64,000 bases of DNA from the sequence record CP063550.1. One strand, given 5' to 3'. This stretch comes from a plasmid. The position numbers are program-made. Shown one piece after another: positions 60,401-63,400 of the stretch (the stretch's first letter is position 1; the number at the start of each line of letters is the position of its first letter).

Positions 60401-63400
60401 CTCAACCTAAAACAGAATTGACAAAATTCATCAATGCCTATAAAAGTGCCAGCTCAAGATTGATAAAACGTGACTTTCCAAGAGTCAAACAATTTCTTTG
60501 GAAAGAAATGTTCTGGTCTAAAAGCTTTTGTCTTCTGACAACTGGTGGCGCACCAATTGATGTGATTAAGAAGTATATCCAAAATCAAGGAAACAATCAT
60601 AAATAGAAAGTAGGTGAACTTTATGGAACAACTAAAAGCATACAAATTCAGAATCTATCCAACAGAGGAACAAGAAATCTTCTTTGCCAAATCTTTTGGT
60701 TGTGTCCGTAAGGTCTACAATCTAATGCTTGATGACCGAAAAAAGGCGTATGAAGAAGTTAAAAATGATTCTTCTAAAAAATGACTTTTCCGACACCAGC
60801 TAAATACAAGAAAGAATTTCCGTTTTTGAAAGAAATTGATAGCCTTGCTTTAGCCAATGCCCAACTTAATTTAGATAAAGCATACAAGAATTTTTTTCGG
60901 GATAAATCCGTTGGATTTCCACGTTTCAAAAGTAAGAAAAATCCTGTTCAGAGTTATACAACGAATAATCAAAATGGTACAATTGCTTTGATTGATAGTA
61001 AATTCATCAAAGTTCCTAAATTGAAGTCATTAGTAAGAATTAAGCTTCATAGACAACCAAAAGGGATTATCAAATCTGCTACAATATCACGTCATTCTAG
61101 CGGTAAATACTATATTTCTTTGTTGTGTAAAGAAGAAATTATCGAATTACCTAAAACTAATTCCACAATTGGTATTGACTTAGGTATTATGGACTTTGCG
61201 ATTCTTTCTGATGGACAAAAAATTGATAATAATAAATTCACGTCCAAAATGGAAAAGAAACTAAAGCGTGAACAACGCAAATTGTCTAGGCGTGCTTTAT
61301 TGGCTAAAAATAAAGGTACCAATCTATTTGAAGCTAAAAATTATCAAAAACAAAAACGCAAAGTAGCTAGATTGCATGAAAAAGTAATGAATCAACGTAC
61401 TGATTTTCTGAATAAGTTGAGTACAGAAATGATCAAAAATCACGATATTATCTGTATTGAAGACTTAAACACAAAAGGTATGTTGCGAAATCATAAATTA
61501 GCTAAAAGTATTTCTGATGTTTCTTGGTCAAAGTTTGTGACTAAATTACAATACAAGGCTGACTGGTATGGACGAAAAATCATCAAAGTAGATAAATGGT
61601 TTCCGTCTAGTCAGATTTGTTCAGAGTGCGGACATAAAGATGGCAAGAAATCTCTTGAAATTCGAGAATGGACTTGTCCTGTTTGTCATACTCATCATGA
61701 TCGTGATATCAATGCTAGTATCAATATTCTGACCGAAGGTCTAAGACTACATTCTATGGGATTGGCTTAGATCCAATCATCAAGAACCGTAGGAACTACG
61801 GGGATAGCTTGGTAAATAAGAGACACCGCTGTTAGTAAAGAAATACGCTATCAAGTATGCTCTATTCCCAAGAAGCTCCCACTTCAAGCGTTAAGAACCG
61901 TCAGGTTTAGCTAAGTGGTGAGTAGTTCACGTAGGTATTTTTATTATATATAGATTTAACATATGTCGGTCGGTTGATTGATATAGCTAAAGTTATAACT
62001 CAACCGAAGCCGATTCATCTACACGAATAAAGTTGCGAGTGTTCTCGGCTAATTCATAAAAATTGTTATGTGTTCCATATAGCAATACTGGAATAACTTT
62101 ATTTTCTTGAATCTCATAAGCAACTCTATACACGGTGACCGCATACTTAAATCCATTAGACCAATTACCTGATAAACCTCCAGTTTTTTGCTCTTACTTA
62201 AATGGATCAATGGCAATTTCATCACAAACCTATAGAGGATGAGTGACTTCTGCCTAATTACGTTAAAAAATATTGAAAGTAACTCTATGTAGCAAAAAAT
62301 ATCTAGAATTTCATTTCCTCAAAACTGATCGATATTGTATCTAAAAATATATACTACCTAAAATAGGTAGTATATATTAAAATATGTGCTTTTGTTAGAA
62401 AAATCAATACATAAATTATCATATCTGTATATGTCATTTAGGTATTTCAGTTATGTTATAATAGTTTTGCTGTCTGCTACCCCGGCCTAATCTGGCAAGG
62501 GGAGGAGGAGATATAATGAAATACCTTTTTGATTTTGTTTTTGCAATCAAGCCACTTGCAGATGTAGTGTGCAGTTACCTCTGCAAATGGCTTGATTGCA
62601 AAATTGCCAAAAAAGACAGTAAGCCTACCCGTTAATTCTATAATATAGAAACGTAAAAAAAACCCCATCAGCCTGCACGCTGATGGGGTTTGGTGATATA
62701 ATGAAATACCTCTTTGTTACTCATAATTATACCATAATTAGTCACGAATGCAACCAATAGAAAAAACTACTTAGAACGGTAGATCATCGCTAATAACAAT
62801 GCATTGTCCACCAAATGGATTTTGTGAAGCATTAAATACATTGTTATTAATTGTCGCTGCTTTTAACTAGGCCTCTCCCCTTCTATTATAAAAGAAGATA
62901 TATATCATTTCTTAATTACCTACTACCTTAAACCAAAATTTAAGTACTACCTAATTTAAGTAGTACTTAAACAATCTAAAAAATAGTTATCCCAATTGTT
63001 ATGCTTTTATAATACGATTATTTGTAACAAAATGAATATTATATAATTAAACACTACCATATTTAGGTAGTGTTTAATTATTAGCAAAACAAAAAATATT
63101 TATTCTATTCTCTTAACTTCAACTAAGTTATGCTGCACACCTTTATATAAATCATATGCAACTCATTAGCTAGACAAACTACAAGCATGTAGTTTTATCT
63201 GTTAATTATGTACTACCTAAATAAAGTAGTTTATAATTAGCAAGTATATATATTTAAAAATTTAAGATTAATTTTTTTATGACTTGTACAAATTTATCTG
63301 ATATTCTCTTATTAAGAACTACCTAATTTGGGTAGTTCTTATTTTTTACATTTTAAGTAGTATTTAATTGCAATTTGGTAGTATTTTTTTATTATCTTAT

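Follow-up and report, generated by a model that had tools for sequence, protein, structure and literature searches.

A 64,000-nucleotide (nt) stretch of plasmid record CP063550.1 (hereafter the window, with positions counted from its first letter) contains a compact locus at 62440-62760 that is very probably an intact par-type (Fst / RNA I-RNA II) type I toxin-antitoxin (TA) module in the replication region of a megaplasmid. The host replicon is pLG1-like, a conjugative megaplasmid of Enterococcus faecium. Homology to validated pneumococcal Fst loci, together with a textbook architecture, places the locus in a known family; it is a new member that annotation usually misses, although one that would not surprise a specialist.

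An earlier reading of this DNA, the original prediction, had claimed that one extra A breaks the toxin frame, leaving either an inactivated toxin or a homopolymer sequencing error. We found that neither holds and that the As had been miscounted. The start region reads ATG (62516-62518), AAA (62519-62521), TAC and CTT, with three As only; both copies of a direct repeat that covers it read ATGAAATACCT, and the open reading frame (ORF) for a peptide of 39 amino acids (aa) is open. The start codon was correctly recognized but lies at 62516 rather than 62515, and the strong Shine-Dalgarno (SD) sequence proposed before it was found as GGGGAGGAGGAG at 62499-62510. In PLSDB, the 421 bp from 62380 to 62800 are matched in 445 plasmid records, 441 of them from Enterococcus; identity is at least 99% in 226 records and 100% in all 30 of the matches listed, and the 39-aa peptide is encoded at an identity of at least 99% in 209. 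A real homopolymer frameshift does lie ~1.7 kb upstream, in tnpB of ISEfa4, and shows that errors or mutations of this kind do happen in the window, while nothing in the toxin sequence itself speaks for one. With three As, an open frame and this degree of conservation, a toxin gene inactivated by a +1 frameshift in the A-run, or a sequencing error in that run, is close to inconceivable.

Promoters, terminator and the repeated start-codon region

Both promoters of the original prediction are present (Table 1). On the plus strand the extended -10 TGTTATAAT stands at 62454-62462, and on the minus strand TTGCAT-16-TATAAT at 62753-62726 additionally carries an extended -10, TGGTATAAT. A consensus promoter scan listed neither, both -35 elements having fewer than 4/6 matches; we accept both because of their extended -10 elements, their conservation in the family and mapped transcription start sites (TSSs). 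Among 51 homologous loci examined, a TGnTATAAT-type -10 sits 42-57 nt 5' of the start codon in most, and a minus-strand extended -10 sits 7-12 nt beyond the downstream repeat copy (DR2) in most; one locus (L002) has TTGACA-17-TACAAT as its minus-strand promoter. Most homologues also have a GGAGG- or GGGGG-type SD before the start codon. Convergent promoters for toxin mRNA and antitoxin, a defining feature of the par type, are thus found on the two strands at family-conserved positions and with mapped TSSs in a homologue.

The convergent small transcripts that the original prediction called for are documented in that close homologue. Differential RNA sequencing (dRNA-seq) of E. faecium Aus0004 by Michaux et al. 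2020 revealed, on plasmid p1 (PMC7724050 supplement), sRNA_128 (minus strand, 41816-42040, 225 nt, TSSs 42035 and 42040, flagged RF02442) and sRNA_127 (plus strand, 41793-41866, 74 nt, TSS 41793, terminator 41820-41851). The small RNAs (sRNAs) sRNA_127 and sRNA_128 are convergent with a 51-nt overlap, stand 13th and 15th in the paper's sRNA table and are among the most abundant sRNAs of the Aus0004 dRNA-seq (PMC7724050). The Aus0004_p1 locus (CP003352.1) has a mean column identity of ~89% to the window, and in the alignment both -10 boxes and the entire 5' untranslated region (UTR) up to the SD are invariant. Its transcripts correspond exactly to the predicted RNA I (toxin mRNA) and RNA II (antitoxin): sRNA_128 (TSS 42035) maps to 62469-62695, where 62469 is the G of GCUGUCU, 7 nt after the -10; sRNA_127 (TSS 41793) maps to 62718..62644 on the minus strand; and the terminator 41820-41851 maps to 62659-62691. 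In the window, the RNA II 3' end falls in or after the T-run, around 62644-62652.

This direct homologue differs from the window locus in several respects. Its peptide lacks the KP(L) insertion and starts at TTG, whereas the window has the insertion and ATG; its repeat sequence is different, both copies having changed together; and it lies on a 56-kb plasmid where it adjoins ssb, not repA. Michaux 2020 listed the pair as intergenic sRNAs with trans-target predictions, outside the toxin-antitoxin heading, and labelled sRNA_128 just 'SpF66_sRNA' (PMC7724050).

A shared bidirectional terminator had been predicted at 62663-62688, and we confirmed the hairpin at 62660-62691. It is the sole segment common to the RNA I and RNA II transcripts: the toxin stop codon ends at 62635 and RNA II ends at ~62644-62652, confining the overlap to the 3' ends as in other par-type loci. 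In nearly all of the 51 homologues, a hairpin of 12-16 bp separates the stop codon from DR2.

In par-type loci the antitoxin is complementary to the toxin mRNA outside this overlap, and here the complementarity is supplied by a repeat of the start-codon region on the far side of the terminator (DR1 and DR2). The 18-nt direct repeat described at 62505 and 62696 is real, with its coordinates off by 1-5 nt; the copies extend over 25 nt at 92% identity around a 17-nt exact core, GATATAATGAAATACCT, a score reached by 0 of 200 shuffles. The par-type direct repeat is thus present, as one continuous repeat rather than as DRa plus DRb. The proposed pairing of RNA II through the repeats is borne out by the predicted duplex, in which the 5'-terminal 28 nt of RNA II are bound to positions 62506-62532 of RNA I at -30.9 kcal/mol, compared with -11.2 +/- 2.6 kcal/mol (best -19.6) for shuffled RNA II/RNA I duplexes.

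Nearly all family loci carry a second copy of the start-codon region, at a distance of 44-115 nt from the stop codon on its 3' side. The sequence of the repeat is lineage-specific (33 distinct pairs), and since it differs between lineages the two copies change together. These 33 pairs contain 21 internal mismatches, 15 of which keep a G.U wobble in the RNA; the DR1-T/DR2-C direction occurs 14 times and the pair-breaking reverse not once, in a set of loci that are phylogenetically non-independent. Such directional mismatches mean that imperfect repeats still give G.U pairs in the RNA duplex, and the bias in these sequences suggests that selection acts on pairing between the two RNAs and not on identity of the DNA repeats.

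Other observations touch on the repeat. A mismatch of this kind in the window falls at 62527/62712, and the same directional bias is seen in the repeat pairs of the homologous loci L002-L058. Ten nt of the repeat core recur a third time, in inverted orientation, as AGGTATTTCA at 62440-62449, a sequence that is also contained in RNA II. This copy falls within the -35 and spacer of the RNA I promoter, ahead of the mapped TSS. We rejected this copy as an upstream start-codon-sequestering element, given that position upstream of the TSS and its retention in only the closest relatives (the window, L004 and L005), and treated it as chance or clade-specific. Finally, a 25-aa ORF, MGFGDIMKYLFVTHNYTIISHECNQ (62683-62760, +), holds a second MKYLF start at 62701 because DR2 copies the start codon and first codons; situated after the terminator and with no comparable SD, it is probably not expressed.

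A scan with Rfam covariance models, one of the checks proposed originally, linked the locus to Fst loci of Streptococcus pneumoniae. RF02442 (SpF66_sRNA) matches 62476-62702 (+) with 53.3 bits against a gathering score of 42 (E = 1e-9, model 1-239), and is the single Rfam family above threshold in the whole 64-kb window. Among homologues, 11 of the 23 sequences tested scored above threshold, and in one set of loci 19 of 20 matched at E < 0.05; the top score, 114.9 bits, came from a streptococcal element. ...CKWLD... can be read in the RF02442 consensus, and the 3' end of the model runs into the downstream repeat.

The genes SP2168 and SP2169 of S. pneumoniae TIGR4 are presumably fcsR and adcA. 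F66 is a 239-nt, Northern-positive TIGR4 transcript from between SP2168 and SP2169 (PMC3395615), and Fozo et al. 2010 described tandem Fst-A/Fst-B ORFs with an antisense sRNA between fcsR and adcA, Fst-B being toxic in E. coli (PMC2887945). F67, the neighbour of F66, is assigned to the Fst family in the PneumoBrowse annotation (PMC12323649), and three Fst-family type I systems are annotated in D39V (PMC6212727). The RF02442 match therefore makes the plus-strand RNA of the window a homologue of an experimentally supported Fst-type toxin mRNA. The pneumococcal Fst-A/Fst-B pair (F66/F67 = srn502/srn503), which shares the covariance model and there has an antisense sRNA and a toxic ORF, is chromosomal and tandem, whereas in the window one copy stands alone, beside repA of a conjugative megaplasmid. 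The window peptide also differs from the pneumococcal ones in its longer C terminus (…KIAKKDSKPTR), a KP insertion and an Asp for the motif Gly. Rfam classes RF02442 as a plain sRNA, not as a toxin mRNA.

RNA structure, covariation and comparison with known systems

RNA I (62469-62696) folds at -90.4 kcal/mol (z = -7.9), and RNA II, with z = -5.25, has an unstructured 5' complement of the repeat followed by the terminator hairpin. In the minimum free energy (MFE) structure of RNA I the SD is entirely paired, its first half with an upstream anti-SD, CU.CCCC, and its second half with CUUUUU just after the start codon. This 5' stem-loop (5'-SL) and a long-range 5' helix (5'-UH) are predicted in both the MFE and the centroid structure, in agreement with the SD-sequestering 5' helix for which the original prediction had proposed to fold the RNAs; the stem-loop and 5' helix typical of the par type are thus present in silico. 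An anti-SD/SD stem is likewise predicted in most of the 37 distinct 5' UTRs that we folded, with sequences that vary by lineage (e.g., CUUCUUCC/GGAAGGAGG and CCUCC/GGAGG).

We assessed covariation of the 5' helix, the two-part coding-region hairpin and the terminator in a MAFFT alignment of 25 RNA I sequences. Standard pairs formed in 93.9% of cells, compared with 38-46% in a control in which the partners were slid by 1-3 columns. Changes on both sides affected 121 cells (38 +/- 6.5 in shuffles) and 21/32 pairs (12.8 +/- 1.7 in shuffles). The 5' helix showed both-sided changes in 6/7 pairs with 91.8% of cells paired (alignment A2), and compensatory examples include GUUGCC/GGCAAC, AUUGUCGG/CCGACAAU and GUUACC/GGUAAU; for this helix alignment-level covariation alone is convincing, since it is not individually significant locus by locus (p 0.02-0.98). 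The terminator stem also covaries, with both-sided changes in 7/8 pairs.

The inverted repeat noted originally in the coding region is real and longer than the 21 bp given, having 28-nt arms. RNAalifold predicted the hairpin family-wide, with 95.5% of cells paired and compensatory pairs such as UA:11/CG:6/GC:4, GC:14/AU:9 and AU:11/GC:11. The caveat that the palindrome may reflect RNA structure was well founded, inasmuch as the hairpin is conserved with compensatory changes across the 25 homologues, but RNA structure does not take the place of coding: the hairpin overlies a genuine coding region.

We also considered whether the palindrome at 62539-62603 is a protein-binding operator, or whether the 63-aa minus-strand ORF (62477-62668) is the real gene. 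The peptides of the two strands are indeed similar (plus strand, FAIKPLADV...YLCKWLDCK; minus strand, FAIKPFAEV...YICKWLDCK), a likeness that results from the 28-nt inverted repeat. However, the minus-strand ORF begins within the terminator and lacks an SD, and its stop-free stretch ranges from 22 to 107 codons among relatives, whereas the plus-strand ORF is in every case preceded by a strong SD, at a constant distance from the promoter. Furthermore, the arms covary as an RNA helix, and the plus-strand RNA is transcribed in the homologue. Both alternatives are extremely improbable, and the minus-strand ORF is a by-product, a mirror image of the palindrome that is not conserved.

The par locus of E. 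faecalis pAD1, whose architecture was summarized by Weaver 2020 (PMC7472228), resembles the window locus in its convergent promoters, shared bidirectional terminator and RNA I of ~230 nt, in an antitoxin 5' end that complements the initiation region via repeats outside the overlap, and in its position in the replication region of a RepA_N-type enterococcal plasmid. An SD-sequestering 5' stem-loop and a 5' upstream helix, predicted by folding in the window, are common to both as well. The two differ in that the window has one continuous repeat of 22-25 nt in place of DRa and DRb, an ATG start codon in place of GUG, and Trp in place of Val as the membrane boundary residue; a YUNR U-turn in the terminator loop is a feature of pAD1 that the window lacks. 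Fst hidden Markov models (HMMs) detect no sequence match in the window peptide, and the unusually long 28-bp hairpin in the coding region is a feature of the window, the hairpin being extended in the megaplasmid clade. A similar arrangement is found in SprA1/SprA1AS (PepA1) of Staphylococcus aureus, an Fst-related type I TA, where the antisense RNA overlaps the 3' end only and acts via a separate complementary region (PMC8594479). According to the T1TAdb paper, a convergent RNA with a shared terminator and repeat-based pairing outside the overlap distinguish the Fst/RNAII and SprA1 families (PMC8594479). PepA1 gave no significant sequence match, and where it has PXXXGC the window peptide has neither a Pro at that position nor the Gly.

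The toxin peptide and its relatives

The N-terminal part of the window peptide is hydrophobic; after it come W25 and a tail that is charged. The signature of the small Fst/Ldr peptides is a conserved Trp that separates the hydrophobic helix from a cluster of charges at the C terminus (Fozo 2010, PMC2887945), and in the window W25 is followed by LDCKIAKKDSKPTR. The Trp is invariant in 27 distinct family peptides, of whose search pattern it was itself a part.

We searched GTDB species representatives for relatives by pattern (HY[IL]CKWLD among the patterns) plus tblastn and obtained 55 loci, which come from Enterococcus, Streptococcus, Granulicatella, Pseudolactococcus, Lachnospiraceae, Ruminococcus, Selenomonas, Veillonella and others. 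Their peptides are 24-39 aa long, with HY[IL]CKWLD ending the hydrophobic stretch ahead of a charged tail. The invariance of this segment is partly ascertained, as the motif was itself a search pattern; it is encoded by many synonymous codons (e.g., six Leu codons, and TAC/TAT at 21/22) and is also found in the independently built Rfam consensus. When the ORF, lengthened by one codon at its 5' end, served as query in a protein homologue search, the output was just three clusters, all from Enterococcus. Long contigs (at least 100 kb) carry many of the relatives. In a 4,967-bp erm(T) plasmid of S. pyogenes, the homologue fills the sole unannotated gap, from mobV to copG.

A tentative and rather doubtful extension of these results is that the HY[IL]CKWLD peptides, together with their RNAs, make up a par-like type I TA sub-family of their own that moves horizontally, carried by plasmids and other elements through Bacilli, Clostridia and Negativicutes. 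If true, this would contradict the older picture of Fst/Ldr loci tracking the phylogeny of their hosts. Within such a sub-family, the conserved hairpin may make the two halves of the ORF near reverse complements of each other, and an acidic residue for the 'essential' Gly in the enterococcal and streptococcal plasmid clade, with Lys-Pro inserted in the megaplasmids, suggests an altered membrane action or target. A full-text motif search found 'CKWLD' in no relevant paper text, and the paper texts consulted contained no account of the megaplasmid locus or the HY[IL]CKWLD clade as type I TA.

Separately, the streptococcal plasmid version of the peptide, MHYIFDVLLAIVAEVTAHYICKWLDSKDKR, recurs in near-identical form in assemblies of Cuspidothrix (a cyanobacterium), Saccharibacteria, Dysgonomonadaceae and Caryophanon. 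These copies (L032, L044, L051 and L054; also L002 and L043-L056) lie on contigs of 2.4-5.8 kb, and likely represent mis-binned or contaminating ~5-kb mobilisable plasmids, or else very broad plasmid spread.

Several observations weigh against assigning the window locus to the par type as an active toxin-antitoxin system. The transcripts are known from the homologue Aus0004_p1, not from the window plasmid. A YUNR U-turn is present in neither terminator loop, CUGCAC in RNA I or GUGCAG in RNA II; this motif is not found in all homologues, according to the review (PMC7472228). The RNA II strand matched no Rfam antitoxin family at E <= 10, giving only sub-threshold, terminator-driven hits such as rli38 and NsiR1. 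The window peptide matched neither Pfam Fst_toxin (PF13955) nor NCBIfam type_I_tox_Fst (NF033608) at E <= 10, its relatives stayed below threshold on NF033608 (16-19 bits against a cutoff of 26), and a family profile run against PDB sequences found nothing at E <= 10. A C. difficile type I toxin model gave subthreshold matches for 10 of 27 relatives. pAD1 Fst itself scored 22.8 bits on PF13955 against a cutoff of 36, indicating that HMM thresholds are insensitive for such short peptides.

The peptide itself supplies the remaining objections. The (P/D/S/T)XXXG motif of the transmembrane helix, whose Gly is essential in mutagenesis of pAD1 Fst (PMC7472228), is replaced by AIKPLAD in the window peptide, where the motif Gly column is Asp. 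In other members of the plasmid clade this column is Glu; it is Gly in the relatives with SVxAG, from Clostridia and Negativicutes. In these SVxAG...KWLD relatives, motif Gly and boundary Trp are presumably as far apart as in PepA1. The window peptide also has a Lys-Pro ('KP') insertion in its hydrophobic segment and charged residues, K12 and D16, within it, with D6 just upstream. Over its best 17-aa stretch the Kyte-Doolittle mean reaches 1.64 and two residues are charged; in relatives, Fst and PepA1 the mean is 2.1-2.3 and 0-1 residues are charged. Finally, toxicity, differential RNA stability and plasmid stabilization are properties that we infer by analogy, from the family and from the repA-adjacent position.

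These departures from canonical Fst lend some plausibility to a toxin that is attenuated or has shifted in function. In the extreme case the RNA architecture would be functional and the peptide attenuated or non-toxic, making the module a regulatory RNA pair or a decaying addiction system. The Asp for the Gly that is essential in pAD1 Fst, the insertion, the charges, the lower hydrophobicity and the failure of the peptide to match any HMM would all fit this idea. Yet the ORF, the SD and the apparatus of translational repression are kept in hundreds of plasmids and in divergent relatives, and upkeep of that apparatus is hard to explain for a harmless product. In addition, the i, i+4 spacing of K12 and D16 would allow a salt bridge within the helix, and the Streptococcus/Enterococcus plasmid clade with Glu at the same position is widespread. 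We thus regard a non-toxic product as quite improbable and favour an intact toxin-antitoxin module.

Plasmid setting, proposed mechanism and significance

The carriers listed for the 421-bp region are mostly conjugative E. faecium plasmids of 150-300 kb. The original prediction called the locus unannotated, which is usually so: PGAP records are blank under the match, and a single DFAST record labels the ORF 'hypothetical protein'. The locus had also been placed beside an iteron array, and we found it inside an iteron-like repeat field (one palindromic copy of the repeat lying upstream of it), ~1.3 kb upstream of a RepA_N-type repA. Several of the iteron-like units form palindromes, e.g., TACTACCTAAAATAGGTAGTA.

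Table 1 Features of the locus and its surroundings in the window.
Feature	Position	Strand	Basis or remark
RNA I (toxin mRNA) promoter, extended -10 TGTTATAAT	62454-62462	+	No good -35; read from sequence
RNA I, toxin mRNA, ~227 nt	62469-62695	+	5' end by homology to mapped TSS; 3' end just past terminator
Long-range 5' helix (5'-UH), GCUGUCU with AGACAGU	62469-62475 with 62614-62620	+	Predicted in MFE and centroid
5' stem-loop (5'-SL), anti-SD CU.CCCC (62477-62483) with GGGGAG (62499-62504)	62477-62504	+	Predicted in MFE and centroid
Shine-Dalgarno run GGGGAGGAGGAG	62499-62510	+	5 nt before ATG; read from sequence
DR1, covers SD 3' end, ATG and codons 2-5	62507-62531	+	RNA II target; repeat search
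Toxin ORF, intact, 39 aa, MKYLFDFVFAIKPLADVVCSYLCKWLDCKIAKKDSKPTR	62516-62635	+	ORF listing of window
Coding-region hairpin, 28-nt arms 62539-62566 / 62576-62603, 9-nt loop	62539-62603	+	Arms 93% complementary
Shared bidirectional intrinsic terminator, 13-bp stem, 6-nt loop	62660-62691	both	T-run on minus strand
DR2	62692-62716	+	Gives RNA II 5' segment complementary to DR1; repeat search
RNA II, antitoxin sRNA, ~68-75 nt	62718-62644	-	5' end by homology to mapped TSS
RNA II extended -10 TGGTATAAT	62734-62726	-	Read from sequence
RNA II promoter, -35 TTGCAT, 16-nt spacer, TATAAT	62753-62748 (-35); 62731-62726 (TATAAT)	-	Read from sequence
Intact RelE/ParE-family toxin, 105 aa	59271-59588	-	Type II pair
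84-aa partner (antitoxin) upstream of RelE/ParE toxin	59589-59843	-	Type II pair
ISEfa4 element with tnpA and tnpB	Between type II pair and RelE remnant
46-aa ORF	61993-62133	-	'Addiction module toxin RelE' in one record
Iteron-like repeats, ~20 or more units, core GGTAGTA(C/T)TTAA	62347-62376 and 62940-63900		Upstream of repA
RepA_N-type repA	Start ~20 nt past window end		~1.3 kb downstream of locus

A type II RelE/ParE pair lies ~2.7 kb upstream of the type I locus, so that the replication region holds two different addiction systems. The 46-aa RelE ORF between the insertion element and the type I locus is far shorter than the nearby RelE/ParE toxin and is probably a remnant. The tnpB gene of ISEfa4 (within 60614-61770) is broken into two ORFs (60614-60784 and 60781-61770) by a 1-nt deletion in the A-run at 60776-60781, which has six As against seven in pTT39_p1, where tnpB is a single 1149-nt coding sequence. 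This split is a genuine homopolymer frameshift or a sequencing error, the very type of defect that was wrongly ascribed to the toxin.

The mechanism that we propose for the locus as a par-type module follows pAD1 par. A constitutive extended -10 promoter would drive RNA I, encoding a 39-aa membrane-type peptide, and this mRNA would be kept translationally quiet by the 5' stem-loop (anti-SD/SD), by the long-range helix joining the 5' end to the 3' part of the ORF, and by the 28-bp hairpin within the coding region. The convergent promoter would drive RNA II, ~70 nt from 62718 to ~62650, and the terminator that it shares with RNA I would make the two terminator hairpins complementary. The 5' 25 nt of RNA II would then pair with the SD edge, AUG and first codons of RNA I and block ribosome entry. 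If, as in pAD1 par, RNA II decays faster than RNA I, plasmid-free cells would translate the toxin and be killed or arrested, and the megaplasmid would be stabilized.

The same type I mechanism might serve another role, i.e., phage defence or abortive infection, stress-induced arrest, or plasmid competition. In Aus0004_p1 and pAA55_2 the homologue adjoins ssb and an annotated abortive-infection gene, not repA; many relatives lie on the long contigs mentioned above; and, of all functions in the family, plasmid stabilization by pAD1 par alone has been verified (Weaver review, PMC7472228). The window locus, however, sits in a replication region beside the RelE/ParE pair and the RelE remnant, which together form a maintenance cluster, and its homologue is among the very few elements on ~5-kb mobilisable plasmids. 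A role other than plasmid maintenance is therefore unlikely, though it has a real share of the probability.

Plasmids of the pLG1 type carry vancomycin-resistance and fitness genes in hospital E. faecium. Persistence of these megaplasmids is of practical interest, and the par-type locus would add a maintenance determinant beside repA and the RelE/ParE pair. It would also give a function to two highly abundant plasmid 'sRNAs' of Aus0004, sRNA_127 and sRNA_128, and would identify RF02442 as in truth a family of toxin mRNAs whose range extends far outside Streptococcus. Our understanding of how such systems work is unchanged; the use of the finding lies in annotation and in the study of megaplasmid maintenance.

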